A stretch of 64,000 nucleotides of DNA from Escherichia phage vB_Ec-M-J. Where the stretch lies: the sequence record OQ718158.1; one strand, 5' to 3'. This document shows positions 45,173-63,787 of the stretch, piece by piece. The position numbers and the translations under genes are program-made. The notes beneath the pieces are model-generated. The model saw nothing but the letters and a program-made list of their open reading frames with translations. It ran no database searches and was not told the DNA's origin. Position 1 is the first letter of the stretch. The number at the start of each line of letters is the position of its first letter.

Positions 45173-45205
45173 AAAATCCAGTACTATAATAGTACTGGAT
45201 TAATT
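45173..45205. terminator. bidirectional terminator between convergent blocks
   Basis: ccagtactataatagtactgg palindromic hairpin flanked by A/T runs. Confidence 0.6.
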
Positions 45206-46330
45206 TTAATTATCTAAGCCACCAATTACACTGAACTGTGTGGTAACGTCTGAACTATTATCTATGTAAGTTCTTCGACCAACATAATATAGTTGTCCTT
45301 TTGCTTGAATAAAAGTTACGGTCCCTGTATTGAATGTTATAATATCATTGTATGTAATGTCAGGTGGTAGTGCTGCTGATAATGCAGTAACAGCACTTAA
45401 TGCAGCACTAGCACTACCATTTATACCAGCAGCAATACTACCAGTACCATAGAACTTATTATCTTTACCAATGAATACGTTGGCTGATGCTTGTGTAGCT
45501 GATGTTATTGCCTTACCAATTTGGAATGCGGTTCCTATGGTGTATGGTGTGCTCCTGGCTGCGTCTATGCTTTGTGTATATCCATCCCCTAGCTGACCAT
45601 TAACTTTGTCACCACATGAGTATAGAGTACCATTGAGGCTGTATATGATCCCACGGTTAGAGAAGCTAACAGCTTCTGCATTAGTCCATACTGGTGCGGT
45701 GTATGAGTTTACACGACTAGCGGTAGTTCCTAGACCTAGTATACCATATGTGTTATCACCACATCCAAACCATTGTCCAGAACTGTTTTGATAGAACACT
45801 GAACGTTCTGTTGATTCCATGCGTACAGCATCCACAGCACCACTTTTAACGAACGAAGTGGATGAGGATGTAGTACCAGTACCCAATGCACCATAAGTGT
45901 TTGTACCAATCGCATAGATTGATCCTAGTGGTGTCATAACACGTATGCAGTTATATCCCAATTGAACTTTACATTCAAATAGGTTGTCCCATATTTCAGG
46001 AACAGCAGAAAATAAATTTGTAATTTCGAACCATGATGTTGTCGAACCAGTTAATCCTATACTGCTTTTGTTTCCTAAAATGAAAACAGTTTTGTCCTTC
46101 TTAATTATCCATGATGATAGAAAGCCTATCTCACAGCTATGAACATTTGATTCGATTTGGGTAATATAATACTTAACGGTGTTATCACCCATAAATGCCG
46201 CAGCACCAGATGCAAAAAGGTTTCCAGTTTGTTTATTTAAAATGTAGTTATTGTTTCCATATACACTAACATCATAAGAACTTTCTTGTTTTTCGTTCCC
46301 ATAATCAAATAACAATACGAAAGGTAACAT
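45206..46330 (-). CDS. MLPF-family beta-propeller protein, paralog 1 of 15
   Basis: N-terminus MLPFVLLFDYGNE; RCC1-like blade CGDKVNGQLGDG; AAGGAG SD. Confidence 0.7.
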   Translation of the reverse strand: MLPFVLLFDYGNEKQESSYDVSVYGNNNYILNKQTGNLFASGAAAFMGDNTVKYYITQIESNVHSCEIGFLSSWIIKKDKTVFILGNKSSIGLTGSTTSWFEITNLFSAVPEIWDNLFECKVQLGYNCIRVMTPLGSIYAIGTNTYGALGTGTTSSSTSFVKSGAVDAVRMESTERSVFYQNSSGQWFGCGDNTYGILGLGTTASRVNSYTAPVWTNAEAVSFSNRGIIYSLNGTLYSCGDKVNGQLGDGYTQSIDAARSTPYTIGTAFQIGKAITSATQASANVFIGKDNKFYGTGSIAAGINGSASAALSAVTALSAALPPDITYNDIITFNTGTVTFIQAKGQLYYVGRRTYIDNSSDVTTQFSVIGGLDN

Positions 46331-46407
46331 GATAAAATCTCCTTGTGTTATACTTTATTTAATCATTTTATAATGTACAATTTTACAGCGATTTAATTGA
46401 GGTACTC
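46331..46407. promoter_or_regulatory. divergent promoter region
   Basis: A/T-rich 77-nt spacer between divergent starts, SD on each side. Confidence 0.4.
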
Positions 46408-47058
46408 ATGAATAAAAGAAGTAAGTTCTATCAAGAATATTTCACTAAACAGAAACGATTCACAAAAAAATACTTTACATCATCCCACCGACCAGTTGCA
46501 AGTTACAAACGTCCTAATACTAACTATCTTACTGGTGGCAAGTTTAGTGCAAAGTTCGAATTACTTATGCGTGAAAAGAATATCAAGATGCATTACGCAG
46601 AGACAAGAAAAAACTCATCAATTATTTGTTCTGATTTTCTTGAGTACGGTTGCTTAACTTATAAATTCAATGATGTATATTTGTATATTGATGTTGATTG
46701 TAACAGTACTCGTATGTTTGAGATTTCAATTCACCCAAATCACAACCGTTATATAAACATTAACTTGGTTGATAAAGTACTGATTGGTATATCTAGTACT
46801 GATGGTGGTGGATTTGAATTTATTGCTTCAAAATATGATGAAGATTTCGTACTTTACCCAGTACTTGATGATGTGAAAGATATTCTCAATTCATTAAAAG
46901 GAAGTCAATACAAATTATCTGAAGAACAGCTATTTCAGTACTCACTTATTCATGATGATATCGAGATATACTTAGAGTGTGCGAGAATCTTGGAGTATCT
47001 TTATAATGAACTAACAACAACTGGTAAAGTGACAGCATTCACATTATATAATATGTAA
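46408..47058 (+). CDS. hypothetical protein (EE-FQ motif family) embedded in the minus-strand array
   Basis: GAGG SD; SEEQLFQYSLIHDD motif. Confidence 0.6.
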   Translation: MNKRSKFYQEYFTKQKRFTKKYFTSSHRPVASYKRPNTNYLTGGKFSAKFELLMREKNIKMHYAETRKNSSIICSDFLEYGCLTYKFNDVYLYIDVDCNSTRMFEISIHPNHNRYININLVDKVLIGISSTDGGGFEFIASKYDEDFVLYPVLDDVKDILNSLKGSQYKLSEEQLFQYSLIHDDIEIYLECARILEYLYNELTTTGKVTAFTLYNM

Positions 47059-47091
47059 AAGAAAAAGCCAGTACATAGTACTGGCTTTATA
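47059..47091. terminator. bidirectional terminator
   Basis: gccagtacatagtactggc hairpin flanked by A-run and T-run. Confidence 0.6.
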
Positions 47092-48225
47092 TTAAACTGG
47101 TGGAGAATTATATGGCTCAAATTTATAAGTTGTCGTAGCAGTACCAGCAATGGCGTTGTTAGCTAGTATGTACATAGTCCTATAGTCGATTACTACCACA
47201 GTAATACTACCACCAAAAGCATAGTCTGTTATGTTATTAGTGTTGAATGGTAAATTAGATGAACTGGTCCATGTATTAGCTGTTGTGCTATTTGTACCAT
47301 TGGAATAGCCGACACTAGATGCACCAGTTGTCCATAAGTTTCCATCATTGAACAACGATACATGGTTAGCTGTATATGATTTATTAGGTATAGAACTATC
47401 AATTGGCGTATTCCAAACTTTAGTAACCCATGTTGTGACGGCTGTATTATTAGTAACACCATTACCTAACGAACCATTTATTGGTATACCTCTTATATAA
47501 GAAGTGTTAGTACTAGGGTCAACATATCCAAATGTATATGTATCAAATGCAAATTGAAAACAATCAGAACTCGGTAATGTGTACAGTAATGTATATGAAG
47601 ACGTGATTATTGATGAATTTGTACCGTTCACGCCTTGGTATAAAATACCACTACCCAATATTTGATTATTATTTTTTGTTATAGCAGTCATAGATGGATA
47701 TGTTTTTACTTCACGCACATCATTAGTTACATATGTTTGTGTTGATAATGCAACATTACTACCATTACCAATAACACCTGTATTTGCACCGCTTCCATAA
47801 AGTGAACCATCATTCAAAAGTACCATTGTGGCATTACTATTTCCAGTAATTGTTTTAATATTACTAACATCCACCGCAGCAAATACAGTTGATGTTAAAT
47901 CAGTGAAACGTGTATAATGTGATGTTGTGCCATTGATTGGTGTCGCAAAACCAGAATACAAAATTCTATTTTCTTTGGTAATAAGGAATGTTCCAGTAAC
48001 ACCGTTTGAATGGATATCAATAATATTATCGCCCATTAATACCCAATCACTTACGAATGTTGTACCAGCACCCAACCCATATGTCGTATTGTATCCACGT
48101 CCATACACTCTACCATCACTGAGTAATGTTACCACACATTGACCACCACCACCAAGGATAACTTTTTGGATAGTACTCTTTACTTTTATATTCCCGTACT
48201 TAACCATTCTTGCAAAAGGTAACAT
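47092..48225 (-). CDS. MLPF-family beta-propeller protein, paralog 2
   Basis: MLPFARMVKYGNIKV; Gly/Thr/Asn-rich body; conserved upstream box. Confidence 0.7.
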   Translation of the reverse strand: MLPFARMVKYGNIKVKSTIQKVILGGGGQCVVTLLSDGRVYGRGYNTTYGLGAGTTFVSDWVLMGDNIIDIHSNGVTGTFLITKENRILYSGFATPINGTTSHYTRFTDLTSTVFAAVDVSNIKTITGNSNATMVLLNDGSLYGSGANTGVIGNGSNVALSTQTYVTNDVREVKTYPSMTAITKNNNQILGSGILYQGVNGTNSSIITSSYTLLYTLPSSDCFQFAFDTYTFGYVDPSTNTSYIRGIPINGSLGNGVTNNTAVTTWVTKVWNTPIDSSIPNKSYTANHVSLFNDGNLWTTGASSVGYSNGTNSTTANTWTSSSNLPFNTNNITDYAFGGSITVVVIDYRTMYILANNAIAGTATTTYKFEPYNSPPV

Positions 48226-48295
48226 AATTCCCTCCTTTATTCTTTATACTATATTTAATCAAAAAGAAAAGCCAGTACTCTGTACTGGCATTATT
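48226..48295 (-). promoter_or_regulatory. array intergenic module: hairpin terminator plus conserved TATAA/SD box
   Basis: Minus-sense gccagtacagagtactggc-TTTTCTTTTTGATTAAATATAGTATAAAGAATAAAGGAGGGAATT-ATG. Confidence 0.55.
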
Positions 48296-49456
48296 TTAAA
48301 TTGGTGAATCTTCAACAAATATAGTACTAGCAGTACCACCAGATACTAGGTTAGTACCACTTGAATATATTTTGTTTCCATCTGTCATATATGTTTTACC
48401 ATAGCAACTTTGGATTTTAACATCTTTGAAATTCAAATCAGGAGTAATAGATTTAGTGTAAGTTAATACGTTAGTAGTTGAACCTGTACTTAATTGTCCA
48501 TAGTATGAAGTCGCTGAGTTATTACCAGCAACGTATACACCTGTGTCAGTAATAACAAAGTTAGAGTAATATCCGTACCCATATCCTATATCTAATATAT
48601 TTCCTTGTGGTTGATTTGCCACAACAGTTGTCAATATGTTGGTTGATGCTGCTGTATTAGTAGCAGCCTGTCCATATGATTGGTCACCACCAGTATACAC
48701 AGTAACAACAGACGTACTATTGTTTCTAGCAATACCTTGAACCATACCATTAACAGTACTTATAAATGCTATAGTACTAACAGTTGCTGGTAATCTATCT
48801 GATAATGCGAATACATTATAAAAACTCACGGTTGAAGTACTGTTAGTATCACCCTTAACTTCACCTGTGTAATATAGTCTACCACTTTCGGCAATAAACG
48901 AACACATGTTTATACCTGCAATAATCCTTTTCGGAACCGCACCACTTGGTATAATTGATTGTACTAAAGTAGAGAAACTGTTAGAATAAGAAGCATTCCC
49001 AAGCTGCCCTCCTGTGTTATAACCACCACTCCAAATTGTCCCATTACTCATAAGTATTGAAATGAAGTTATTCCCTAGTGATATTTCTGAAATTGTTCCT
49101 TGGGAATTAACTTGATTAATAACAGTTTGCATAGAAGTCCATGCATTAACAGATGATGTACCCATACACACATTGTATTGTCGCCCTGTGTATTGATATG
49201 TACCATCTGATTTGTGAATCATTGTAGCATACTGACCACACCATACATCAATGACATCCGATGCAGTTACTGTCCATGATGTTCTGGTTGTATTGTCTCC
49301 TAAACCCAACTGACCACTTGAATTGGAACCACGGGTATATAATTTACCATTACTACCCAATACCATAACCCAGTTATACCCTGCAACTAATTTTTTAATG
49401 GCAGCAGGGGATGGTGCAATGTTCCCGTAATCAAACAATCTTACAAAAGGTAACAT
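48296..49456 (-). CDS. MLPF-family beta-propeller protein, paralog 3
   Basis: Start set at MLPFVRLFDYGN (track ORF extends 13 codons upstream); GQLGLGDNTT and GGQLGN blades; AAGGAG SD. Confidence 0.7.
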   Translation of the reverse strand: MLPFVRLFDYGNIAPSPAAIKKLVAGYNWVMVLGSNGKLYTRGSNSSGQLGLGDNTTRTSWTVTASDVIDVWCGQYATMIHKSDGTYQYTGRQYNVCMGTSSVNAWTSMQTVINQVNSQGTISEISLGNNFISILMSNGTIWSGGYNTGGQLGNASYSNSFSTLVQSIIPSGAVPKRIIAGINMCSFIAESGRLYYTGEVKGDTNSTSTVSFYNVFALSDRLPATVSTIAFISTVNGMVQGIARNNSTSVVTVYTGGDQSYGQAATNTAASTNILTTVVANQPQGNILDIGYGYGYYSNFVITDTGVYVAGNNSATSYYGQLSTGSTTNVLTYTKSITPDLNFKDVKIQSCYGKTYMTDGNKIYSSGTNLVSGGTASTIFVEDSPI

Positions 49457-49469
49457 TTTTTTCTCCTTA

Positions 49470-50618
49470 TTATATTGATGGCATATCCAACACATATGAG
49501 TTGCTAGTAATTGATGAATATGTAGAATTTAAACCTGTACTATAAACATAATCACCTGCCCATAAGAATGTTCTATCCAATGTTGTATGTATTTCAATAT
49601 CATCATATGATGATAATGATATTTGTGCTAGTGTATATGTAGTAGCATCAATGTTTGAACCAATACCCAAAGTACCATTGTATTGTGATTGGGAGTTTTG
49701 ACCAGTTGCATATATACCAGATTTGGTTATTAAATGCTGATTGTACATTGACGTACCTTTAAACAATTTAATTAAATTAGAGTTAGGTGTAGTTATTGGT
49801 GCAGGAGCAAGTATTGTTGTTGTAGTGCCACCATCACCTAATTGTCCATATCGTTGGTAACCACCAGCGTATACCTGTTTAACTCCAGCCGTAGTTTCAA
49901 TAATAAAGAATGAACCATAGCCAGTAGTATTAAAGTCTATAATTTTATTTGTACTCAAACCAACATTATATCTAGTAAATGTTGTTGCATTTGCTGAACC
50001 ACCAGCATTCCCACCTACCATTTGCCCACTATAATAAAATGCTCCAGTACTGTCAGTATAAGCCATACAGTTCTCACTACCATAGATTTTTACTGGTGTA
50101 CTGGGGAAACTAGAGGTTATATTCACACATGTATTATATTTTGCAGTAGTTCCAGTAATTTCACCATTGTTGTTTTGCCCAATTACCCAAACTGTGTCAT
50201 CCGAACGTATAGCCATTGAGCTATAAAACGAGGATACAAATTGTTTAATAAAGGAACCAGGGAGAGAAGTAAGCATACTATTGATTTGTGCACTCACATT
50301 GGTCCATGTATTCACAACTGAATTGACACCTGCGGCTGCACCTGAACCAGAACTCCACCATGATTCATCATTCTTTTTAATCAATGTACCATTAGCAGAG
50401 CAATAAACATCAGCAACTGAACTATTAACTAATATCCATGCCCTCGCTGCTGTTGTATTACCAGTACCTAGCTGTCCTGCTGCATTACTACCCTTAGCAT
50501 ATAAATCTCCATTCTGCGTTAAAAGCATAGCATGTTGGTATCCAGTTGACAATTTCTTTATTTTTGGTAATGCTGGTGCTTCATTTCCATAATCAAACAT
50601 TCTAACAAAAGGTAACAT
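49470..50618 (-). CDS. MLPF-family beta-propeller protein, paralog 4
   Basis: MLPFVRMFDYGNEAP; AAGQLGTGNTT and YGQLGDGG blades; C-terminal YVLDMPSI. Confidence 0.7.
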   Translation of the reverse strand: MLPFVRMFDYGNEAPALPKIKKLSTGYQHAMLLTQNGDLYAKGSNAAGQLGTGNTTAARAWILVNSSVADVYCSANGTLIKKNDESWWSSGSGAAAGVNSVVNTWTNVSAQINSMLTSLPGSFIKQFVSSFYSSMAIRSDDTVWVIGQNNNGEITGTTAKYNTCVNITSSFPSTPVKIYGSENCMAYTDSTGAFYYSGQMVGGNAGGSANATTFTRYNVGLSTNKIIDFNTTGYGSFFIIETTAGVKQVYAGGYQRYGQLGDGGTTTTILAPAPITTPNSNLIKLFKGTSMYNQHLITKSGIYATGQNSQSQYNGTLGIGSNIDATTYTLAQISLSSYDDIEIHTTLDRTFLWAGDYVYSTGLNSTYSSITSNSYVLDMPSI

Positions 50619-50689
50619 AATTCCCTCCTTTATTCATTATACTATATTTAATCAAAAAGAAAAGCCAGTACTCAAGTACTGGCATTATC
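50619..50689 (-). promoter_or_regulatory. array intergenic module: hairpin terminator plus conserved TATAAT/SD box
   Basis: Minus-sense gccagtacttgagtactggc-TTTTCTTTTTGATTAAATATAGTATAATGAATAAAGGAGGGAATT-ATG. Confidence 0.55.
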
Positions 50690-51868
50690 TTAAAATTGTG
50701 GTAGTTGGTATTCAGTTAATGTCCATGTACCTGTAACTGTTCCATTCGGGGACATCCCTGTGTAGTATAATTTGCCACCAGCGTATACAAATAATGCATT
50801 GTCATTAGCAGCAACCATCGAAGTTTCTGGATCAAATACTACAGAAATTGGTAATTGTGATTGAACAAATACTGACGCATTGGTAGTTGAATTGTTACCA
50901 AGTTGTCCATAGTTGTTATACCCAGTACTGAAAATACGGCTACCATTTCTATATAATATACCCCTAGTACTTTGTGAATGTAGATCTATAAATTCAAAAT
51001 CGGAAACATTAGTTAATTGCAAATAAGTACTTTGTGGAGTTAGTGCTGTCTTATTCGTATTGGTTGTAACTCCATTACCTAATTGACCGTAAAATTGTGA
51101 TCCTAAACCATATAGCGGATAAGTACCATCTGAATAAAGAACTATACCCAACATCTTATTATGTGAAAGAATATCTATTGGATATTTCCCTGTACCAAAG
51201 TCGTATCTAGTCCAAGACGTTAATGTAGCCGACGCTGCCCCAGTTAACAAAGTACCAGTGGTAGTTGTGCCACATCGCCACGCTGAATTATCATTCTTAA
51301 TTATCCAAGTTGGACTATTAAAAAATGAACTAACCTTTTTAACATTAATATTGACCTGGGTTAATTCTGTAAGCATTGATGAACTTGAACCCAACTCATA
51401 TGTGGAGTTATTACCTATTGCATAAAGAACCCCACTATTTGTTAGTACAAACAAATTACGAACATTAGGATATATCTCTTTAATATCATCAATATTAATA
51501 CCCGAAAAATAAGAAGTACATTCCACAAAGGTAGTACTTTGTACTTCACTCGATGCACCTGTCCAGGTGTTCCATCCTGCATAATAAAATTTATTATCAT
51601 TAGTCTGTACTAAGCTATATGAAGAGTTCCTAGTGCACCAGAAATTTTTCACATTTTGCATTAATCGAACCCATGATGTCTGTGTTGTAGTATTACCCAG
51701 TCCGAAAATACCAGCATTGTTTCCACCGATACCCCACAAATCACCGTTACTATACTGTAGCATCAATGTATTGTTGGTGAACGCTGATGGTGCTTGCATT
51801 TTAATTACATTAGCTGATGGTGCAGGTTTAATATTCCCGTACTTAACCATTCTTGCAAAAGGTAACAT
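50690..51868 (-). CDS. MLPF-family beta-propeller protein, paralog 5
   Basis: MLPFARMVKYGNIKP; YGQLGNG blades; C-terminal EYQLPQF. Confidence 0.7.
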   Translation of the reverse strand: MLPFARMVKYGNIKPAPSANVIKMQAPSAFTNNTLMLQYSNGDLWGIGGNNAGIFGLGNTTTQTSWVRLMQNVKNFWCTRNSSYSLVQTNDNKFYYAGWNTWTGASSEVQSTTFVECTSYFSGINIDDIKEIYPNVRNLFVLTNSGVLYAIGNNSTYELGSSSSMLTELTQVNINVKKVSSFFNSPTWIIKNDNSAWRCGTTTTGTLLTGAASATLTSWTRYDFGTGKYPIDILSHNKMLGIVLYSDGTYPLYGLGSQFYGQLGNGVTTNTNKTALTPQSTYLQLTNVSDFEFIDLHSQSTRGILYRNGSRIFSTGYNNYGQLGNNSTTNASVFVQSQLPISVVFDPETSMVAANDNALFVYAGGKLYYTGMSPNGTVTGTWTLTEYQLPQF

Positions 51869-51943
51869 ATATTTTTCCTCCTTTATTCATTATACTATAT
51901 TTAATCAAAACGAAATGCCAGCACTCAAGTACTGGCATTATTG
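51869..51943 (-). promoter_or_regulatory. array intergenic module
   Basis: Same hairpin plus TATAATGAATAAAGGAGG box. Confidence 0.55.
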
Positions 51944-53134
51944 TTATAGTTGTCTTGGAGTATCAAGTACATATCTATTTGTACTAGGACCACCATCATC
52001 ATAAGTTCCGGTTGAATATATATTTTTCATATCAGCAGTTAGGAAAGTACGTAACGACCCTCGATATATTTTTATTTTATCATACATAGAATATGTTATT
52101 TCTGACGGCAATGGACATGCAGTAAATTTACCAATGGTAACATTAGAACCAACACCCAATGAACCAGCATAACTACTCGCATTTAAACCTGTTGCATATA
52201 CACCAGAACTCGTAACTAGTATACTAGATTGTGCTGGGTATCCAGTATGAATTGAATACAAAGTACCGGGTGGTAAGGTTGTACTATTATTTCCTAATAC
52301 TGCTCGTGCTGTACTAGACGTAGTGTTATTACCCCATGCCCCATTATTGGCGTTCCCACCCACTAGGAACTGACGTGCTCCTGTACTTGGATTCTCCACT
52401 AAAGCACTGACTGCACCAATTGTACATACAACATATTGTAATGTTTTTGTATATGTTGTACTTGGCTGATATAAAGTATATTGATTGTATGGAGTCCATG
52501 TATCAGTAGTACTTATACCTGATGTACTACCACCAATATATAAATTATTTTGTGTATCATAAAACATTACACAGCTATTTGTTGACTGTATTCGTGCAAT
52601 ATCAACATTAGGCGTGACAGCTTTTACAAATGATCCATCTGTTATTTGCTGAGTACTACCAGTACCATCAGCGAATTGTCTAGCCCCACTCCAACCAGTA
52701 CTCCATATTGTATTATTATCCATTAAGAAAGTAAACCAAGTAGTACCTGCATACATCTGTTTAATTGAAGTACCTGAACTTTGTGTGTACAAATTTTCAA
52801 TATATTGGTTATAACTTAAAAATGATGTAGTACTAGTTTCTAAACCAATATGACTACCATATCCACAATAAAAATAATTTAAGTCCTTATCTTGAACTAA
52901 CAAAGTTCCTTGTGTCATCCAGCAATCTTTGACATTTTCTCTAATTAATGTCCACGACCTTACTGCATTATTATTTCCGCGACCGAACTTCCCATAACTA
53001 TTATTTCCTCGTGCGTATAGTTGACCGTCAGTATAAAGTACAACCACATCAGTATCAGTTGGTATTATTTTCTTAATTAGAAGAGGTTCAGGTGTGATAT
53101 TCCCATAATCAAACAATCTAACAAAAGGTAACAT
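51944..53134 (-). CDS. MLPF-family beta-propeller protein, paralog 6
   Basis: MLPFVRLFDYGNITP; C-terminal YVLDTPRQL. Confidence 0.7.
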   Translation of the reverse strand: MLPFVRLFDYGNITPEPLLIKKIIPTDTDVVVLYTDGQLYARGNNSYGKFGRGNNNAVRSWTLIRENVKDCWMTQGTLLVQDKDLNYFYCGYGSHIGLETSTTSFLSYNQYIENLYTQSSGTSIKQMYAGTTWFTFLMDNNTIWSTGWSGARQFADGTGSTQQITDGSFVKAVTPNVDIARIQSTNSCVMFYDTQNNLYIGGSTSGISTTDTWTPYNQYTLYQPSTTYTKTLQYVVCTIGAVSALVENPSTGARQFLVGGNANNGAWGNNTTSSTARAVLGNNSTTLPPGTLYSIHTGYPAQSSILVTSSGVYATGLNASSYAGSLGVGSNVTIGKFTACPLPSEITYSMYDKIKIYRGSLRTFLTADMKNIYSTGTYDDGGPSTNRYVLDTPRQL

Positions 53135-53204
53135 ATTTTCCTCCTTTATTCATAATACTATATTTAACCAAAAAGAAAAGCCAGTACTTGATACTGGCGT
53201 AATG
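53135..53204 (-). promoter_or_regulatory. array intergenic module
   Basis: gccagtatcaagtactggc hairpin plus conserved box. Confidence 0.55.
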
Positions 53205-55643: not shown

Positions 55644-56753
55644 TTATTTTGGTAAATCAATTTTAGTAAAGACTGCAACATCCTCGCTTGCCCCTGGGAT
55701 GGCGTAATAAGAACCAGTACTATATACATCTCCGTCTTTTGTTAATATTGAAGTTAAACCATCACTAAAAAGAACATCACTAATCTCACTAACTGAAACA
55801 GGTAATTGTAAATTAGTAGCACTATATATTGCACCAGTTTGAGAATTGTTTAATCCCAAACCACGGTTCGCCCCAACACCCTTCTGATATGTACTAGTAA
55901 TTATAATTTGTGTAGCAGTATTTAATGCAGGTGAATTCGTCATAAACAACGGAGAACTATTAGGCAAAGAACTTACAGGAACTGCACGAAATGTAGTTGT
56001 ATCTGAACTAAGAAAGTTTGGCGTTTGACCACATACGAAATATGATGTACCATTATAGTAATTAAATGCATTACCACCTATAGCTGCATCTATTACTCCA
56101 GTACTACGTAATCCCCACGTGTTAATTTGTGTTCGGTTCCCCGTGCCATGCTGACCCCTGTCATTCCACCCAGAACTATATAACTTATTATCTAATGTAA
56201 TATACATACTGTCATTTGAATTCGTCATTACTTTACGCACATTAGTAGCACATTGAGTTAATGTGTAAATTGATGATGAACCAATACCTAAAGCACCACG
56301 ATATCCATTAGCCCCTGCACCATAGAGTACTGAACTAGTGCTAAGTACAAATATTAAACCATACGAACATACTATATCAGCAATTTCATTTACCGATAGT
56401 ACACTCGTAAACCACGCAGTCCTATCAACTAATACAGTACTGTAAGAAGTCCCAGTAGAAGACGAAAACCAATAAGTCTCACCAGCAGTCCATATAGTAT
56501 TGTCACTCTTAATAACAACAACTGTACGATCACCAGCAAAAAAATTAGTAACTTCTGTACTCACTAATCTCCATGAAGATACAGTGTTGGTATTACCATT
56601 TCCAGATTCACCACCTTGATTTCTACCTATGTAATATAAATCATGTGAATCAGTCAATAAGAATTGACCCTGTGTAGACGCACCAACTTTTATTATATTT
56701 TTAGGACCAGGTGTGATATTCCCATAATCAAACATTCTTACAAAAGGTAACAT
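55644..56753 (-). CDS. MLPF-family beta-propeller protein, paralog 9
   Basis: MLPFVRMFDYGNITP; RGQHGTGNRT blade; C-terminal FTKIDLPK. Confidence 0.7.
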   Translation of the reverse strand: MLPFVRMFDYGNITPGPKNIIKVGASTQGQFLLTDSHDLYYIGRNQGGESGNGNTNTVSSWRLVSTEVTNFFAGDRTVVVIKSDNTIWTAGETYWFSSSTGTSYSTVLVDRTAWFTSVLSVNEIADIVCSYGLIFVLSTSSVLYGAGANGYRGALGIGSSSIYTLTQCATNVRKVMTNSNDSMYITLDNKLYSSGWNDRGQHGTGNRTQINTWGLRSTGVIDAAIGGNAFNYYNGTSYFVCGQTPNFLSSDTTTFRAVPVSSLPNSSPLFMTNSPALNTATQIIITSTYQKGVGANRGLGLNNSQTGAIYSATNLQLPVSVSEISDVLFSDGLTSILTKDGDVYSTGSYYAIPGASEDVAVFTKIDLPK

Positions 56754-56763
56754 ATTTCTCTCC

Positions 56764-57894
56764 TTAATTTAATAATGCCCCTGGCAAATCCACTTTGACG
56801 AATTGTGCATATGCTGAGGAATTTTGATCAAAGTTTGGTCCCAATCCATAAAATGAGCTAATGCCGTCTTCATTTGTGTATATGATATAAACGTTCTTTA
56901 CATCATTTCCGCATATAAATCGAATGTCTTTCGTTTGTGTTCCCGCTGGAACATTACGAAGGTTCACAACGCCATTACTTGCATTGTTATCAGCCGACGC
57001 AATTGGTAATTGATTTTGACCATATTGACCACGCATATTTTTTGCATCTAAACCAAACACAGTATCTGATACCGCACCAACTTTCAAAAATGAACCAAAA
57101 CTATTATTGAATGACTTTGGAAATGTACCACTATAAACACTTCTCCCATCTGATAATACCGCTGAACTGAATTTCCCGCTATTCGATATGGCAAATTCAT
57201 TGTAAGGAAGTGTACCCATTTTGGTATATACAGAATATGAATTAGTGGAAGTATTATCAATAATCTTATTACCATTATATCCAATACCATACTGGTATCC
57301 GTCTGCATCTTGAACTATACACAAAGGACCACTTGGGGTTTGTGTCAACGAAACAACACGTTCAACTTGTATATCACCAAATGTATTTCTTCGCCATGTT
57401 CTATCTATTATAGTACTAGTATTACCCAAAGATAATGCCACACTATATAATAGATTGTTTTCAGTAAAAATGGCAACATAATATGCGTGGTTAATAACTT
57501 GCTTCATCCCAGCATCAATAACTTCCTGTGGAATATGATCAGTAACATCCAACCAATCAAGGTTAGATGATGCAATATCTGGAGTACTGAATTTGTCAAA
57601 TCTAGTTGAGCCACAAACTAGCACTCTATCATCATTTGTCAAAGCCACTGTGCTAGTCTGCATATTAGAACTGAATGATTTAACATTACTAATGTTAGAC
57701 TTGTACCAACCCTTATCAGCAGCACCCACCGTGAATCCGGTTCCCATTGATCCACTTGTACTTGTACCATAAGCCCACATCTCACCACTATATGTTAGTG
57801 CCATACAGTGGCTTCCATTTGCTTGGAAATCCTTTATACCAGTGGGAGCAACCACTGTATTCCCATAATCAAACATTCTAACAAAAGGTAACAT
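56764..57894 (-). CDS. MLPF-family protein, paralog 10
   Basis: MLPFVRMFDYGNTVV; only 10 nt from paralog 9 start; C-terminal FVKVDLPGALLN. Confidence 0.7.
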   Translation of the reverse strand: MLPFVRMFDYGNTVVAPTGIKDFQANGSHCMALTYSGEMWAYGTSTSGSMGTGFTVGAADKGWYKSNISNVKSFSSNMQTSTVALTNDDRVLVCGSTRFDKFSTPDIASSNLDWLDVTDHIPQEVIDAGMKQVINHAYYVAIFTENNLLYSVALSLGNTSTIIDRTWRRNTFGDIQVERVVSLTQTPSGPLCIVQDADGYQYGIGYNGNKIIDNTSTNSYSVYTKMGTLPYNEFAISNSGKFSSAVLSDGRSVYSGTFPKSFNNSFGSFLKVGAVSDTVFGLDAKNMRGQYGQNQLPIASADNNASNGVVNLRNVPAGTQTKDIRFICGNDVKNVYIIYTNEDGISSFYGLGPNFDQNSSAYAQFVKVDLPGALLN

Positions 57895-57971
57895 AACTAA
57901 TTCTCCAAATTCAAATAATTATAATGTATTTACAAAAAAAATACCAGCACATATTTCAGTACTGGTATCAT
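57895..57971 (-). promoter_or_regulatory. array intergenic module (variant box)
   Basis: Hairpin with cagtactg core plus TGTAAATACATTATAAT and GGAG SD. Confidence 0.5.
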
Positions 57972-59153
57972 TTATGGTAAAATGATAGATTGTAACGAAC
58001 TCATACCCAATGCTGGAACACTAGCCTGTGGTGCTGGAGAATTCAATTTTGGTGATGAAACCGCATATGACATTCCTGAACCCAAATCTGGATCAAAAAC
58101 TACAGCACAATAATTCCCACTATATATAAGTCCATTCTTGTATCCTTGTGCACTTTGAATGCATTTCGTGAACGTACCAATATCTGTAGTGGCATTTATT
58201 AAGTTCCTCCCACGATAACCGCAGGTGTATATGAAATTATCATCGCCTATGTACATACTAGAATCCCCAGAAGAACTACATAGATACGACATATAAGCAC
58301 GCATGTTTTTAGGAGCAACTGACAATGTACCTGCATAGAATTTATTATTCGAACCCGTAATATCACCATCACCCAATGCACCAAAACTTCCCCAGCCAGT
58401 ACCATAATATCTCTTATCACTCAAGAATATAATACAGTTGTTATTACACATCTTGACTTGATATATCAATGAAGGATCAACCCCAGGGAATGATTCAGTG
58501 TATGTTAGAACAGCCAGATCAGTACTAGCATTACATTGATGATATGTATTAGTACCAGCGGACAAGATTGTTCCATTAGCTAACAGAATTCTCGCAGTAC
58601 CAGTACCAGCAGTACAAGCAACTGCACTTCCTGCACTTCCGGTGTATATTTGTCTGAAAGTAAAGAAACCAACAGTTTTACTTCCCTGCCCACTCCAACC
58701 AGTATTATCAACTCCACACGCCCATACTGAACCATCTTGCATGATCATCATTACACCAAAGCGTTCTATTGAAATATAAACAATCTTCGTTGTATCAACT
58801 GCACTAAATCTAGAAGTTATATCAGTCCATACCTTAACACTTACCGCCGTCGCACTGGAAGTAGGATCTTCACCAGCTATCATTATCCTCCCATTGTTAG
58901 TAAGATACATTGTCTGACTATAACCAGTACTACAAAACTTAACACTATCAGTCTCTGGAACTTTTAACCACTCGTTGTAACGTGTTACGTTAGTGTTATT
59001 ACCTAACTGATAATAGTTATTCATCCCAGATACATATAACACACCATCCTTTATTAAACTATAAGTCGCACTATAGTCACTACAGGTATAACGTGTACCC
59101 ACAGGTCGCTCAACGACGTTCCCATAATCAAACATTCTAACAAAAGGTAACAT
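57972..59153 (-). CDS. MLPF-family protein, paralog 11
   Basis: MLPFVRMFDYGNVVE; divergent body. Confidence 0.7.
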   Translation of the reverse strand: MLPFVRMFDYGNVVERPVGTRYTCSDYSATYSLIKDGVLYVSGMNNYYQLGNNTNVTRYNEWLKVPETDSVKFCSTGYSQTMYLTNNGRIMIAGEDPTSSATAVSVKVWTDITSRFSAVDTTKIVYISIERFGVMMIMQDGSVWACGVDNTGWSGQGSKTVGFFTFRQIYTGSAGSAVACTAGTGTARILLANGTILSAGTNTYHQCNASTDLAVLTYTESFPGVDPSLIYQVKMCNNNCIIFLSDKRYYGTGWGSFGALGDGDITGSNNKFYAGTLSVAPKNMRAYMSYLCSSSGDSSMYIGDDNFIYTCGYRGRNLINATTDIGTFTKCIQSAQGYKNGLIYSGNYCAVVFDPDLGSGMSYAVSSPKLNSPAPQASVPALGMSSLQSIILP

Positions 59154-59226
59154 AATAAAATCTCCGTAATTAAATTATATAGTATTTACAAAAAATACCA
59201 GTACATATTTCAGTACTGACCTATTA
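59154..59226 (-). promoter_or_regulatory. array intergenic module (variant box)
   Basis: Hairpin plus GTAAATACTATATAAT and GGAGA SD. Confidence 0.5.
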
Positions 59227-60348
59227 TTAAAAGGGCAACGGTAACTCAGTAAAAGTACTTACGTCCGGTAAACCATACATTGAATTAGCATCACCACAGT
59301 AATACCACTTCGTAGAATCATGTACCACCGATAAACGCTGTGCACATAACACTTCCTGTATGTCATTAAACACCATCGGGACTAACTCATATGTATCCGC
59401 AAATGAAGATACACCACCACTCGCATGAAAAGTATTCGTCCCAGCATAAAATAACTGATTAGTGTTCTTACCCACAGCAAATGTCATCAATATCCCATCA
59501 TTCTCCCATAAAGAAGAAAACTTATCAACACTACCAGAAAGCTCTGTGTAAGTACTCGTAATGGCACTCGCAGCCGCCGCATTACCCATCTGTTTATTCA
59601 AGTTCTGTCCAGCAATAAAATATCTCGTGCGTGCACTAGAATCAGTATATAATAACCCAGTGTTCGTAGTCATCATTCCAATGTCCTTAATCGTCATACC
59701 AGTCTGTGAATAACTTAGATACGAAGTTAAACTACCATTATTACCCAACGAACCGTTATCACTCATGCCACAACGATGTAATATACCACTTGTATCAACG
59801 TAGATAGTACTAACTAAACTCGTATACAACTCTTGTACATTATTCGCAATAAACACAGCAGTCGCCTTATTACTAACCCCACCAAATGATAGGTTATTAT
59901 CAAATCCCTTAGCGTATAATTGATTATTAGTAGTCAATAATCCAATCGTGAAATAAGACATTTTCATATCCCTTACTGTACTCAAATCTACTGCCCCAAA
60001 TTGGTGCGTAACATCTGTCCATGTGAAAATCTGTGCACTACCAACACCACCCGTTTCAAACCATTTGTCACCACAGTACAATATGCGATTACCCTTAGTA
60101 AAGATAACTGTTACCAATCCACTACCACACGCAAACTTTACATCACTTCTAACCTTCGTCCAATCAAGTACATAGGTAGTGGTGTTATTACCTATACCTA
60201 ACTTGCCATAACGGTTATAACCACGCACCCACAAATCACCACTCTTAGTAATTAATAGTAATGCGTCTCCTGTACTTATTATTCGAAATCCCGAACTAGG
60301 ATCAGGTACTTCATTTCCATAATCAAACATTCTAACAAAAGGTAACAT
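59227..60348 (-). CDS. MLPF-family protein, paralog 12
   Basis: MLPFVRMFDYGNEVP; C-terminal FTELPLPF. Confidence 0.7.
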   Translation of the reverse strand: MLPFVRMFDYGNEVPDPSSGFRIISTGDALLLITKSGDLWVRGYNRYGKLGIGNNTTTYVLDWTKVRSDVKFACGSGLVTVIFTKGNRILYCGDKWFETGGVGSAQIFTWTDVTHQFGAVDLSTVRDMKMSYFTIGLLTTNNQLYAKGFDNNLSFGGVSNKATAVFIANNVQELYTSLVSTIYVDTSGILHRCGMSDNGSLGNNGSLTSYLSYSQTGMTIKDIGMMTTNTGLLYTDSSARTRYFIAGQNLNKQMGNAAAASAITSTYTELSGSVDKFSSLWENDGILMTFAVGKNTNQLFYAGTNTFHASGGVSSFADTYELVPMVFNDIQEVLCAQRLSVVHDSTKWYYCGDANSMYGLPDVSTFTELPLPF

Positions 60349-60421
60349 ATATCCCTCCTTTATTCATTATACTATATTTAATCAAAAAAGAAATGCCAGT
60401 ACTCAAGTACTGGCATAGTAT
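60349..60421 (-). promoter_or_regulatory. array intergenic module
   Basis: tgccagtactcaagtactggca hairpin plus conserved box. Confidence 0.55.
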
Positions 60422-61549
60422 TCAAAAAGGTAAATCAATTTGCTTAGTAATAATAGTATCTAACGGTATTGAACACAATGAGAAATTCTTTCCACCCGTA
60501 TTTTCAGGATTATATCCATTCATCCATACATTATTACCTTCGTAAAATGTATTCCAGTATAAAGACCCACTATATCGTGTATTCGAATTGAACGATGTAA
60601 AATTGAATTCTTGAAATGCTGTAAAATATGGAAGGGAACTTGAACTACTTCCCGTAAATGGGGTATGCCCAGTTGCTATTAGTTTGTTTGTATCTGCATT
60701 AATTAAAAATACAACACTAGTCGAATAGTCCAACGAATCAGGATGATATATATTACTCATATCACCTATAGTAAAACCAACATCAAAAACTTTACTATGT
60801 GCACCACTACCAGCAAAAGTAGTTCCAGTTGCATATATTTTATTATCAGATGTTATCATTACAAAACCAACACCAGAAACAAAACTGCATTTTATATCAT
60901 AAGATATATCATCAAACAACGGAACAAATGTGGTTGCATCACCCGATGTTGCTTTAACTTGAAAGCTGTTATTTGAACCTGAACCATATACAGTTCCATC
61001 GTTTTTAATCTTAAACAATGTATCGCCAAGGTAACCGCCAAATATATTATCCACATTAGTGTCAAGTACAGTCCACGCTGAAACATAATTTTTATGTCCT
61101 AAACCTAATGTACCACTTCGATTCCATCCTCTTCCATAAAGTGTTCCGTCTTTCATTAATATAAATGCTGTATAACCACATAACATTTTTTTAATTTGGG
61201 TAACATCTATACCAGTGAAATACACAGCCCAGTCAGTATATCCTTGTTGGAAAGTATTAGAATTCGTGAATGCATATGTTGAACCTGAACCATATATTTT
61301 ATCACCTTTAATAACAACGGAAAACGATCCTAACCATAAGTCATCAACTTCAGTTGTGATTTGTTGAACTGCTCCTAACGATACAAACTGTGTACTTAAA
61401 CCCGCATTATAGTTTGAATCTTCACCGTGTGCATATACAGTGCCATCTTGCATTAGAAACATTTCAAGAGTGTAACTAACAACACTTTTCTTTATATTAT
61501 TAACTTCGATTATATTCCCATAATCAAACATTCTAACAAAAGGTAACAT
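60422..61549 (-). CDS. MLPF-family protein, paralog 13
   Basis: MLPFVRMFDYGNIIE; C-terminal KQIDLPF. Confidence 0.7.
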   Translation of the reverse strand: MLPFVRMFDYGNIIEVNNIKKSVVSYTLEMFLMQDGTVYAHGEDSNYNAGLSTQFVSLGAVQQITTEVDDLWLGSFSVVIKGDKIYGSGSTYAFTNSNTFQQGYTDWAVYFTGIDVTQIKKMLCGYTAFILMKDGTLYGRGWNRSGTLGLGHKNYVSAWTVLDTNVDNIFGGYLGDTLFKIKNDGTVYGSGSNNSFQVKATSGDATTFVPLFDDISYDIKCSFVSGVGFVMITSDNKIYATGTTFAGSGAHSKVFDVGFTIGDMSNIYHPDSLDYSTSVVFLINADTNKLIATGHTPFTGSSSSSLPYFTAFQEFNFTSFNSNTRYSGSLYWNTFYEGNNVWMNGYNPENTGGKNFSLCSIPLDTIITKQIDLPF

Positions 61550-61618
61550 AATTCCCTCCTTTATTCATTATACTATATTTAATCAAAAAAAGCCAGTATC
61601 AAGTACTGGCATATTAAT
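61550..61618 (-). promoter_or_regulatory. array intergenic module
   Basis: Hairpin plus conserved box. Confidence 0.55.
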
Positions 61619-62767
61619 TTACTGCAAAAATGACATATCGACTTCTGTATAATTAAGAACGTTCTGTCCAGAAATACCACCCATTACTACTATTGCAAGG
61701 CCACAATAATATAATTTTCCAGTATCAGTAAGTATAAGTGAACCAGATGGGGTGCGTACCAAATTACAAGAGGTATTAAACGAAGTATATGAAGGAGTAT
61801 AGGAGTACTGATTAATATTATTACCAACACCTAATTGACCAGACGCGTTGCTTCCAGATGCATAAAGTACTTCATCACCTTTAACTATATGTGATGCCAT
61901 GTTACCAACACAAGTATATAAACTATAAACACCTGCACTCAATAATGTGGGGGTTTTATATTGTATATCAGTAGAAGAGGAAGTACCACCTGTACCAAAT
62001 TCGTTCCCATATTGTGCACCGAACTGTTTACCACAAGCGTACAAATTATTATCCGATTTGATAAAAAATGTACTCTGATAACTTACATTAAAATCTATAA
62101 CATCCGAAGAAATCATCGTCACCCCAGTAATAGAAGTTTGATTACCCGTGCCCAACTGGTAGTAATAGTTAAAACCACAACCCCATAAAGTATTATCTTC
62201 TCGCAAATAAATGTTACCAACTGCCTTTTTAACCGAAGTTATAGTATCTACTCTTTTGAATGTGTTAAAAGAATTAATGTTTGTGCCATCACCAAATGAT
62301 GATATGTTCGATATATTGTTAGCTCCACAACAATACAATGTACCATCGTTTGTTATCAAATTCACCTTCATATCATAAAAACTACTCATGTATTTTATAT
62401 CAGAAACATTAATACCACTTGATGTTATCCACGTAGTACAGTCCGTCCACAAAGTTTTTCTATCAGTTACACCAGTGAATGCCTTCGTGTTACCAGTGAT
62501 AAAAACTTTTCCAGTACCTTTCTCTTCATACAATTGACAATCACTACTGTTATCTTCCAATAGAACTCGTTTAACATTCTCCGCACAAAGAATAAATTTA
62601 CTCGATGCTACACCTGTACCAGTACCCCAATTCGTCGCAGAAGATGCATACAACTTATCAGTATAAGTATCATGAAGATACATAGAATCACTGGAATATA
62701 TTTTAAAACGCCCAGAGTTGGTAGGTGCTTCATTCCCATAATCAAACATTCTTACAAAAGGTAACAT
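61619..62767 (-). CDS. MLPF-family beta-propeller protein, paralog 14
   Basis: MLPFVRMFDYGNEAP; YYQLGTGNQT and SGQLGVGNN blades. Confidence 0.7.
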   Translation of the reverse strand: MLPFVRMFDYGNEAPTNSGRFKIYSSDSMYLHDTYTDKLYASSATNWGTGTGVASSKFILCAENVKRVLLEDNSSDCQLYEEKGTGKVFITGNTKAFTGVTDRKTLWTDCTTWITSSGINVSDIKYMSSFYDMKVNLITNDGTLYCCGANNISNISSFGDGTNINSFNTFKRVDTITSVKKAVGNIYLREDNTLWGCGFNYYYQLGTGNQTSITGVTMISSDVIDFNVSYQSTFFIKSDNNLYACGKQFGAQYGNEFGTGGTSSSTDIQYKTPTLLSAGVYSLYTCVGNMASHIVKGDEVLYASGSNASGQLGVGNNINQYSYTPSYTSFNTSCNLVRTPSGSLILTDTGKLYYCGLAIVVMGGISGQNVLNYTEVDMSFLQ

Positions 62768-62779
62768 ATTTCCTCCAAA

Positions 62780-63685
62780 TTATTTAAAAACATACTGCGT
62801 ATTAACACGTGTCCCGTTGTCGTAACCAAGTACGTAAAATATTTCAGCACTATTATTAGAGCCAAATAATGCACCAGTACTATTACTCAACGTTGTATTG
62901 ATAGCTAATGGTATCCATTTGTTTTGCTCGGCATCATATTTTAATAAATTTAATGCACCATAAGATACTGCATATATACCTTTGTCATATCTATTGTAAA
63001 TTATCTTACTAGGGTTAGCTCCACCAACTGCTGCCATTCTTGACCAAACCGCACTCTCTATGTGATATTTTTGTGCAGGAGTAGATCCTTGTCCTGTAAA
63101 ATATATGTAAGTACCATCAGTGCACATATCACCACCACCATTGTTTGTTGTATTCCCAGTAGTACCTAACGATGTCCATGTATTAGTACTCGGCGTATAA
63201 CTATATAATGCAGTATTAGACGGTGAACCCCACAAATATATCTTATCCCCTGTAGTAATCATCTTACTATATACTGCCTGGTTAGGTTTGCCAACACTTG
63301 TATTATTCAGTGTCCATGTATCAGAGCTTATGTCATATACATAAAAATTATTATTAGCAACATTCGCTGCACCTAAACCACCGAACAAATATATTTTTCC
63401 TTGATAGGCACACAATGCACTTCCATAGGTGGATACTGGTGGTGATGATAATTGTACCCATATTCTAGAATTTAAATTAAAACTCCATAACTGATTATCC
63501 TGGTTCGAAGTATTCATTATACCACCAAATATATAAGCAGTATTTCTTGATGCATCATACGTATAACCAAAGTTATTTCGTGCTGAAGGTACTGGTGATG
63601 TGGTAAATTGAGTTCGTATACCACCATTTGGGGCTGGTAATGGAGCTTCATTCCCATAATCAAACATTCTAACAAAAGGTAACAT
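62780..63685 (-). CDS. MLPF-family protein with kelch-like repeats, paralog 15
   Basis: Start set at MLPFVRMFDYGNEAP (track ORF extends 30 codons upstream); kelch-like IFGG / IYLFGG / IYLWG units. Confidence 0.65.
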   Translation of the reverse strand: MLPFVRMFDYGNEAPLPAPNGGIRTQFTTSPVPSARNNFGYTYDASRNTAYIFGGIMNTSNQDNQLWSFNLNSRIWVQLSSPPVSTYGSALCAYQGKIYLFGGLGAANVANNNFYVYDISSDTWTLNNTSVGKPNQAVYSKMITTGDKIYLWGSPSNTALYSYTPSTNTWTSLGTTGNTTNNGGGDMCTDGTYIYFTGQGSTPAQKYHIESAVWSRMAAVGGANPSKIIYNRYDKGIYAVSYGALNLLKYDAEQNKWIPLAINTTLSNSTGALFGSNNSAEIFYVLGYDNGTRVNTQYVFK

Positions 63686-63733
63686 ATTTCCTCCTTTATT
63701 CATTATATCATATTTACCCCATAAACAAAACCC
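63686..63733 (-). promoter_or_regulatory. conserved TATAAT/SD box upstream of paralog 15
   Basis: Minus-sense TAAATATGATATAATGAATAAAGGAGGAAAT-ATG. Confidence 0.5.
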
Positions 63734-63762
63734 TTGACATCCTTTCAGTACTGGTGTACTAT
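63734..63762 (+). promoter_or_regulatory. sigma70-like promoter
   Basis: TTGACA-N17-TACTAT with cagtactg in spacer. Confidence 0.5.
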
Positions 63763-63787
63763 AGAAGGAATACAAGGAGAACTACAC

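Follow-up and report, generated by a model that had tools for sequence, protein, structure and literature searches.

A cassette array in a jumbo coliphage encodes putative accessory virion proteins that share a 12-residue N-terminal tag

The 64,000 nucleotides (nt) of Escherichia phage vB_Ec-M-J analyzed here (record OQ718158.1; hereafter the window) carry, on the minus strand between positions 45206 and 63685, an array of 15 genes whose products all begin with a 12-residue N-terminal tag of consensus M-L-P-F-x-R-(M/L/I)-hydrophobic-x-Y-G-N, followed by bodies that are only 14 to 30% identical to each other in pairwise comparisons. The locus is probably a cassette array for accessory virion proteins, in which the tag would dock each protein on the particle, the bodies would be displayed externally, and the cassettes would be expressed late and exchanged by recombination. 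That the tag itself is a signal for incorporation into the virion is, in our judgment, likely.

The association of the tag with the virion comes from relatives whose particles have been analyzed by mass spectrometry. In phage CBB, 8 of the 10 tagged proteins were detected (CBB_247, 536, 537, 548, 549, 551, 552 and 553), compared with 55 of 554 open reading frames (ORFs) overall (Fisher p = 2e-7). In phAPEC6 the corresponding numbers are 6 of 12 tagged proteins and 62 of 551 ORFs (p = 9e-4); the published virion proteome lists gp003, 005, 006, 007, 009 and 010, with 1 to 4 peptides each (PMC7247149). The CBB paper reports the RCC1-like gp001 of phage GAP32 to be structural by mass spectrometry and also gives the 121Q and PBECO4 copies (PMC5259590), and GAP32 gp002 is annotated in its record as a "virion structural protein". 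Five of the six CBB structural proteins without a GAP32 homolog are tagged. The CBB authors recorded only the pairwise paralogy of 536 with 537 and of 549 with 553, and the CBB mass spectrometry supplements contain no tag-containing peptide sequences. A preliminary description of the window, made from its letters alone, had proposed docking or virion targeting as one role for the conserved N-terminus, and this proposal is supported by the mass spectrometry of CBB, phAPEC6 and GAP32 virions.

The tag is not confined to one kind of body. When the conserved sequence around the array gene starts (the cassette junction, described below) was searched against CBB, the match was limited to 39 nt at the coding start. 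Seven consecutive CBB genes, CBB_548 to CBB_554, all start with MLPF(S/P/A)(R/I)...Y(G/A)N; three of their bodies are Kelch, two are Laminin_G_3 and two are without a Pfam match. With CBB_536, CBB_537 and CBB_247, which lie elsewhere, the total is 10 tagged genes in tight operons at three separate genome sites, where the tag is kept without the Asteriusvirus junction. GAP32 gp001 (RCC1) and gp002 (a weak Laminin_G_3 match below the Pfam cutoff) are both tagged, and environmental arrays mix Laminin_G_3-type, Kelch and RCC1 bodies with fusions of RCC1 and Kelch. As judged by these domain matches, the tag is independent of fold, standing ahead of RCC1, Kelch, Laminin_G_3 (concanavalin A-like, ConA-like) and fused RCC1+Kelch bodies.

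Some of the tagged proteins in the collected loci are much longer than those of the array, for example those of 667 amino acids (aa) in locus L017 (6413-8416) and 690 aa in locus L028 (11752-13824). The former, L017_02, contains by Pfam an RCC1-like and a Kelch propeller in one chain, and the latter, L028_04, is a 34%-identical full-length homolog. In the Vequintavirinae, homologs of the Laminin_G_3-type bodies are annotated as virion structural proteins and have a different N-terminus; those of CR3 (L037, 8995-9645) and 4MG (L038, 7953-8603) start with M(N/E)EML(M/L)(L/V)G, not MLPF, and this start may represent a second, platform-specific tag. RCC1-like propellers are also present in proteins of Pseudomonas phages annotated as tail fibers, one of which bears a T7-type fiber N-terminal domain.

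The distribution of the tag was obtained by degenerate DNA pattern scans of viral and metagenome contigs; a profile search with a 42-residue tag alignment against 5.8 billion proteins returned only 8 candidates and 2 fragments. The collected loci contain 133 tagged ORFs no shorter than 150 aa, which reduce to 90 representatives below 90% identity and to 60 lineages below 40%. Among the 90 representatives, positions 2, 4, 6, 10 and 12 are conserved and positions 5 and 9 are free, a result to be read with the knowledge that the expression used to collect tagged genes partly imposes positions 1-4 and 10-12 and does not impose Arg6 or the hydrophobic position 7. Arg6 is present in 77 of the 90. 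The alternation of conserved positions is the pattern that an extended strand with one buried face would leave. A proline-containing linker follows the tag, with P15 in 46 and P17 in 35 of the 90 representatives.

Codon comparison places selection on the tag at the level of the protein. Pro3 is encoded by CCT in 67 of 67 Asteriusvirus tags and by CCA in 20 of 24 Mimasvirus-type tags, and Tyr10, Gly11 and Asn12 show synonymous variation. Within the window, the 32-nt start motif gives 11 matches at no more than three mismatches, with none expected from shuffled sequences; the remaining four of the 15 genes have MVK or VLLFD variants of the tag. The variants found on orthologous bodies are specific to the genome, being MFD in this phage, MVK in 121Q and phAPEC6, and MLE in EJP2, and the tag therefore undergoes concerted evolution inside each genome, whether through gene conversion or through coevolution with its partner. 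The start of the genes is conserved at the nucleotide level, as originally described, but the conservation also extends to about 75 nt upstream of the coding start.

Structures were modeled with AlphaFold2 for one RCC1-type member, g04, and the Kelch member, g15. Both models are of good overall quality by their predicted local distance difference test (pLDDT) and predicted template modeling (pTM) scores (pLDDT 85.5 and pTM 0.86 for g04; 86.9 and 0.86 for g15, a six-bladed Kelch propeller with about 24 strands). The g04 model is the seven-bladed propeller anticipated in the preliminary description, and Foldseek matched it to UVR8 (4dnw; TM score 0.77) as well as to RPGR, HERC2 and RCC1. Residues 1-19 of g04 and 1-21 of g15, which include the tag, are coil with a pLDDT of about 45-68, that of the g15 segment lying below 50, and the first beta strand begins at residue 20 and residue 24, respectively. 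The tag is predicted by these models to be a free flexible extension and not a closure strand. The earlier suggestion of a velcro strand that closes the propeller fails on two grounds: the tag is unstructured outside both modeled propellers, and it also heads Laminin_G_3 jelly-roll proteins that have no propeller.

The window derives from a 121Q/PBECO4/phAPEC6-like jumbo coliphage (Asteriusvirus, 348-386 kb), with BF17, WPEC3, CMSTMSU and fEgEco12 as nearest relatives by megablast. It is characterized by numerous small plus-strand genes, five tRNAs and a GC content of about 35%. In the same comparison, the 15 kb upstream of the array are covered to 50-81% at 86-99% identity in relatives and the array is covered by any single relative record to only 10-41%, so the array is the variable portion of a fairly conserved neighborhood. 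Misassembly or a collapsed repeat is ruled out, as like arrays occur in 43 independent phage records and several metagenome contigs.

The ORF list bears out the 15 minus-strand genes with the MLPF(V/A)R(M/L)(F/V)(D/K)YGN start. They were described as consecutive, but the run is broken once by a plus-strand ORF at 46408-47058. The end of the array had been placed at 63775, which is wrong; two of the mechanically called ORFs begin upstream of the MLPF ATG codons at 49456 and 63685. Most intergenic gaps measure 69-77 nt; three are as short as 10-13 nt, and one of 761 nt holds the plus-strand ORF. Fourteen members are RCC1-like proteins of 369-396 aa, in agreement with the 370-400 aa first given for all, and the fifteenth, g15, is a Kelch protein of 301 aa and falls outside that range. 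The recognition of RCC1-like blades in most copies was correct, as Pfam and the g04 model agree, with g15 as the exception: RCC1, RCC1_2 or RLD matches were found in g01 to g14 and Kelch repeats in g15. The gathering threshold for RCC1 (PF00415) or RCC1_2 (PF13540) is passed by 13 of the 14 RCC1-like members; the sole match of g12 is to the RLD profile (PF25390), with 56 bits where the cutoff is 150. For g15, PF24681 scores 94 bits (cutoff 50), and the scores of Kelch_1, 2, 3, 4 and 6 also exceed their cutoffs. In charge the bodies are near neutral, with an isoelectric point (pI) of 4.8-8.6, Lys plus Arg about equal to Asp plus Glu, and about 40% Ser/Thr/Asn/Gly. A C-terminal motif (aromatic-x-x-hydrophobic-D/x-L/M-P) that had been assigned to most copies is loose; it can be recognized in about 10 of the 14 RCC1 members and is missing from g01, g02, g11 and g15. 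The genes and the interrupting ORF are as follows.

g01, 45206 to 46330, minus strand: RCC1-like propeller, 374 aa, variant tag MLPFVLLFDYGN; RCC1 match of 50 bits; 99% to BF17
Non-family ORF, 46408 to 47058, plus strand: 216 aa, phrog_34359, no Pfam match; between g01 and g02
g02, 47092 to 48225, minus strand: RCC1-like, 377 aa, tag MLPFARMVKYGN
g03, 48296 to 49456, minus strand: RCC1-like, 386 aa; 13-nt gap after g04; without its own promoter
g04, 49470 to 50618, minus strand: RCC1-like, 382 aa; seven-bladed propeller model with the tag free
g05, 50690 to 51868, minus strand: RCC1-like, 392 aa, MVK tag
g06, 51944 to 53134, minus strand: RCC1-like, 396 aa
g07, 53205 to 54347, minus strand: RCC1-like, 380 aa, MVK tag
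g08, 54424 to 55572, minus strand: RCC1-like, 382 aa
g09, 55644 to 56753, minus strand: RCC1-like, 369 aa; 10-nt gap after g10; without its own promoter
g10, 56764 to 57894, minus strand: RCC1-like, 376 aa
g11, 57972 to 59153, minus strand: RCC1-like, 393 aa
g12, 59227 to 60348, minus strand: RCC1-like (RLD profile only, below cutoff), 373 aa
g13, 60422 to 61549, minus strand: RCC1-like, 375 aa
g14, 61619 to 62767, minus strand: RCC1-like, 382 aa; 12-nt gap after g15; without its own promoter
g15, 62780 to 63685, minus strand: Kelch propeller, 301 aa, tag MLPFVRMFDYGN

An equivalent of the ORF at 46408-47058 is present at the same spot in BF17. In both 121Q and phAPEC6 the edge of the array has an ORF that resembles it in size and in its position and strand with respect to the array. 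A 208-aa plus-strand ORF at 53827-54453, antisense to g07 and g08, is most likely spurious.

Ahead of 12 of the 15 genes the junction has a constant order: a hairpin with a CCAGTAC...GTACTGG core and the consensus GCCAGTAC-TTGA-GTACTGGC, a T-run, the sequence TAAATA-N3-TATAAT, AAGGAGG and the ATG. By these sequence signals the 12 genes are separate units, each with a terminator-like hairpin, a promoter core and a ribosome-binding site (RBS). Genes g03, g09 and g14 retain only the RBS of the junction and are probably cotranscribed with the preceding gene. The hairpin of the reference junction folds at -15.2 kcal/mol (z -4.4), and this junction has matches at 395 places in the 43 phage records. 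A scan for terminator-like hairpins found 21 sites, compared with 8.0 +/- 3.1 expected, and a scan for the promoter core found 17 matches, compared with 3.7 expected. The elements are located as follows.

Reference junction, 50583 to 50693, minus strand: hairpin GCCAGTAC-TTGA-GTACTGGC with T-run, TTAAATATAGTATAAT, the RBS AAAGGAGG, ATG and 36 nt of tag codons
Terminator-like hairpins, 12 in number, 45175 to 61610, minus strand: CCAGTAC...GTACTGG core and T-run, one after each transcription unit
Hairpin stems, first six, minus strand: 45175-45201, 47064-47088, 48271-48289, 50664-50683, 51914-51939, 53180-53198
Hairpin stems, last six, minus strand: 54395-54414, 55619-55637, 57940-57969, 59197-59220, 60393-60416, 61592-61610
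Promoter-like cores TAAATA-N3-TATAAT, 12 in number, 46347 to 63716, minus strand: upstream of the ATGs at constant spacing
Promoter cores of g01, g02 and g04 to g08, minus strand: 46347, 48243, 50636, 51889, 53152, 54365, 55590
Promoter cores of g10 to g13 and g15, minus strand: 57918, 59174, 60366, 61567, 63702

The only exact match to the promoter core outside the array within the window is upstream of a structural gene at 12300-13457 (phrog_10468), and a second structural gene at 32115-33626 (plus strand, phrog_20398) has TATAAATATAGT upstream. The late motif proposed by the CBB and GAP32 authors is ATAAATA. A sigma-70 promoter scan of the window gave 81 sites, compared with 99.6 in shuffled sequences, and none at the junctions. 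On the strength of the similarity to the motifs ahead of these two structural genes and of the ATAAATA late motif, we read the junction promoter as late-type, which suggests late expression of the array. The two structural genes, at 12300-13457 on the minus strand and 32115-33626 on the plus strand, are themselves embedded among small, early-looking genes, and a T4-late-like motif (ATAAATA or TATAAATA) lies ahead of both.

The junction resembles the promoter early stem-loop (PeSL) elements of T4-type phages, in which an intergenic terminator hairpin and a promoter flank accessory genes and are found at the boundaries of insertions/deletions (indels) and replacements (PMC2839356, PMC4122927). 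Like PeSL elements, it is a composite of hairpin and promoter, and the indels and replacements that distinguish close relatives end at it. It differs in that the hairpin core is CCAGTAC/GTACTGG instead of GGGG/CCCC, in that there is no sigma-70 -35/-10 pair at normal spacing but the late-type TAAATA-N3-TATAAT, and in that the conserved block continues into coding sequence, namely the tag. The array would therefore extend the PeSL idea by combining regulatory signals, a targeting signal and a crossover site in one unit.

The classic PeSL form is present elsewhere in the window, on the plus strand, as GGGTTGAC..GTCAGCCC followed by TATAAT. A plus-strand stem-loop element bearing a sigma-70 -35 (TTGAC), GGGTTGACTTCGGTCAGCCC, occurs in at least nine copies between 19208 and 41850 (for example at 19208, 27681, 31275, 32055, 33636, 34318, 38941, 40419 and 41831), with none expected by chance. 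A T-run follows in four of four copies inspected, and TATAAT follows in three of these. Judged by its composition, this element represents the classic PeSL architecture of T4-type phages, occurring here in a Rak2-like jumbo phage, and it is distinct from the array junction.

Comparison with relatives gives a picture of the turnover of cassettes. Nine of them have orthologs in BF17 at 95-100% identity, and g09 has one at 89%; the g08 ortholog is relocated within the BF17 array. Close orthologs of g05 are found only in 121Q and phAPEC6 (83%). The close ortholog of g12 is limited to EJP2 among the phages compared (95%), with another on the metagenome contig L027; the best ortholog of g13 is also in EJP2 (63%), and that of g03 does not exceed 37% among the genomes compared. 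Compared with BF17, 121Q, phAPEC6 and EJP2, the array has a mosaic makeup, and metagenome contigs have yet other cassette orders. Internal ends of homology blocks fall in one of two zones, either 35 to 52 nt past the ATG of the flanking gene, where the tag codons end, or within the junction, from the ATG to 76 nt upstream of it; no internal end in these array comparisons lies inside a body. The crossover of the g03 indel is within the first 13 nt of the ORF. All breakpoints being in the junction or the tag, the cassettes appear to be exchanged whole, and close relatives, as their alignments show, differ by gain, loss and movement of whole cassettes.

The bodies had been called hypervariable. 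They are so as paralogs, but orthologs are under purifying selection, with a median ratio of nonsynonymous to synonymous substitution rates (dN/dS) of 0.21 over 57 pairs, and the cassettes are therefore maintained genes. The source of the diversity, on this evidence from alignments, is deep paralogy together with reshuffling and not point hypermutation, which is unsupported given the dN/dS of 0.21, reverse transcriptase and template repeats not having been searched for. In 121Q (L004, 9090-13911), the array members gp234, 235, 237 and 239/240 are fragmented or split, with products of 42-333 aa; their phAPEC6 orthologs are intact, and the split members could be pseudogenes or the result of sequencing frameshifts.

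We propose a model in which each protein consists of the 12-residue tag, a short proline-containing linker and a compact beta-rich module of a ligand-binding type. The tag would become ordered upon docking at a common acceptor site of the particle, and one type of acceptor site could then take many unrelated modules. The modules would most likely be outside the particle and would make up a mixed adhesin coat, and homologous recombination over the conserved junction/tag stretch of about 110 nt would reshuffle the repertoire. In 121Q, Hua et al. described an unassigned decoration at each hexon center, long fibers on the capsid and sheath, and an inner body (PMC5646251). Candidate sites would be the hexon-center decoration or fibers and the "hairy" sheath fibers of 121Q, phAPEC6 and CBB, and the tagged proteins are candidate components of these structures.

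Between the two possible locations, the balance tips modestly toward external display, and internal packaging seems unlikely. The near-neutral Ser/Thr/Asn/Gly-rich composition and the folds, which are those of extracellular binding modules, favor the outside, and the Laminin_G_3-type homologs with another N-terminus in the Vequintavirinae follow the anchor-plus-binding-module pattern of receptor-binding proteins. The RCC1-like propellers of tail-fiber-annotated proteins and the unassigned surface decorations of 121Q and phAPEC6 point the same way. Modular receptor-binding proteins are exemplified by the T7 gp17-type fibers and by the multi-tailspike sets of CBA120, phi92, G7C and K64-1/RaK2. 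With these the array shares a platform-specific N-terminus and exchanged binding modules, several of which are carried per particle in those systems. The anchor is a 12-residue unstructured motif in the array and a folded domain of about 100-150 aa in the receptor-binding proteins; the array bodies are single compact domains without the long fiber or beta-helix shafts typical of trimeric fibers and spikes; and the 12-16 paralogs of these arrays are far above the numbers in those sets.

Terminal segments that anchor accessory proteins to capsids are another point of comparison. The disordered N-terminus of lambda gpD anchors a capsid decoration, T4 Hoc sits at hexamer centers, and the FNPVYPY motif of the adenovirus fiber docks on the penton base. 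In these systems the terminal segment is disordered when free and ordered on the capsid, and the displayed modules are accessory and often adhesive, as we suggest for the array proteins. Capsid decorations use one or very few proteins per site, whereas the array tag, a putative capsid-binding segment, is found on many. We know of no decoration system that loads dozens of unrelated folds through one motif.

A more specific form of the model, somewhat less likely than not, is that MLPFxR..YGN is a universal "plug" for a multicopy surface "socket" of Rak2-like jumbo phages, at hexon centers, on the hairy fibers, or both. If so, a single virion would show a dozen or more unrelated lectin-like modules, re-dealt by recombination at the tag and junction. 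This would be plug-and-display by a short linear motif without a described phage counterpart, and it would account for the unassigned virion decorations.

Several points weigh against the model of docked and externally displayed accessory proteins. Two of the ten tagged proteins of CBB and six of the twelve of phAPEC6 were undetected, and peptide counts were low. Part of the conservation of the tag is imposed by the way it was collected, and a low pLDDT at an N-terminus is by itself weak evidence. The late-promoter assignment is based on motif similarity to two structural genes, and homology-block ends in the junction are partly expected, since alignments run through any conserved stretch. The outside placement and the acceptor site rest on indirect evidence. 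Both 121Q and phAPEC6 contain an inner body, as components of which the RCC1-like proteins were suggested by the phAPEC6 authors. T4 is a relative of these phages, which have a gene for a gp21-like prohead protease, and in T4 the logic of a shared N-terminal capsid targeting sequence (CTS) serves internal proteins.

These last points lead to the rival explanation that survives best, one that we nevertheless rate as improbable, namely that the tag is a CTS-like signal that directs its carriers to the core of the prohead or to the inner body, from which they are ejected with the DNA as inhibitors or decoys of host defense proteins. The T4 internal proteins IPI, IPII and IPIII have more than 30 variants, which share the CTS, are located in the virion and are encoded in plastic loci (PMC3012670, PMC2839356). 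The likeness to the array is one of logic, not homology: otherwise unrelated virion proteins have only a short N-terminal peptide, some 10-12 aa long, in common, and the genes are clustered in plastic loci with composite promoter/stem-loop elements. The T4-type head genes of this phage group, which include the prohead core protease, and the inner body of 121Q and phAPEC6 also favor it; detection in virions by mass spectrometry is equally compatible with it, and cassette turnover is compatible with an arms race. The array tag, however, does not resemble the T4 CTS in sequence, and a conserved protease site is absent. Prohead proteases of the T4 type cleave at (L/I)-x-E, and neither this motif nor a conserved Glu is found in or after the tag, where position 9 is D/K/E/Q/N and position 13 is I/T/V/E/K. 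T4 internal proteins are small and charged, whereas the array bodies are large neutral propellers, with lectin-like folds as well in relatives; neutral propellers and ConA-like folds of 30-75 kDa, of the extracellular-binding type, would be awkward to eject through the tail tube. RCC1-like folds in tail-fiber-annotated proteins of other phages also speak against internal packaging, and the low peptide counts are unlike the copy numbers of T4 internal proteins.

A role in DNA condensation or as an inner-body scaffold, which follows from the annotation "RCC1 / DNA condensation protein", is very improbable. It is backed by database annotations in relatives, by the inner body of 121Q and phAPEC6, and by the phAPEC6 paper, which counts eleven RCC1-like proteins and speculates on an inner-body or DNA-ordering role (PMC7247149). 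The annotation was transferred from eukaryotic RCC1 by fold name alone. The array proteins share with the RLD proteins RCC1, UVR8, RPGR and HERC2 a seven-bladed propeller with GxNxxGQLG-type blades, but identity is only about 15-23%, and a guanine nucleotide exchange factor or chromatin role is unsupported. The bodies are not basic, the same tag is on Kelch and Laminin_G_3 proteins, and a scaffold leaves 15 divergent paralogs and the gain and loss of cassettes unexplained. Their composition makes DNA binding or condensation by the array proteins unlikely.

Equally hard to sustain is a conserved start without shared protein function, produced by gene conversion, by selection on DNA or RNA, or by inheritance of a propeller closure strand: the near fixation of tag codons within the genus with conservation continuing into the upstream junction, the genome-specific tag variants on orthologous bodies as under gene conversion, and the one crossover within tag codons fit it, but residues are retained across genera despite codon change at Pro3, Tyr10, Gly11 and Asn12, CBB keeps the tag at three sites without the junction, the tag heads unrelated folds and is modeled outside the propeller, and its statistical link to virion incorporation is strong.

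The preliminary description did not recognize the array as a described phage system, which is only partly right. The array itself is already known, under a misleading name and with members in virions (PMC7247149, PMC5259590). What appears to be undescribed is a tag of 12 residues that is independent of fold, the statistical association of this tag with the virion, and the recombination cassette bounded by the tag and junction; no description of the shared tag, its fold independence or the cassette junction was found in the literature searched, which excluded subscription journals and with them the genome paper of GAP32. The tag and cassette are variants of known principles, represented by the CTS, by receptor-binding proteins with an N-terminal anchor, and by PeSL elements. 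A testable model of accessory virion proteins with a 12-residue incorporation tag supplants the misleading label of "DNA condensation / regulator of chromosome condensation", and the array is a clear example of how a large repertoire of paralogs builds up and turns over in jumbo phages. If the tag alone suffices, it would be a handle for loading foreign proteins on jumbo phages, for display or for engineering of host range.

Elsewhere in the window, a tRNA cluster at 3423-6842 comprises Ser(TGA), Ser(GCT), Met, Asn(GTT) and Thr(TGT). Codons that they decode are 1.4-2.3 times commoner in the array than in plus-strand genes; a link between the tRNAs and the array was rejected, as the codon excess merely mirrors the Ser/Thr/Asn-rich composition. 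An HNH/homing endonuclease gene is encoded on the plus strand at 40707-41822 (phrog_559, phrog_9084). In 121Q (L004, 23359-27195), the array is directly followed by a plus-strand run of about 17 genes with products of about 60 aa, and BF17 (L003) has small plus-strand genes from about 100 nt past the Kelch member onward.

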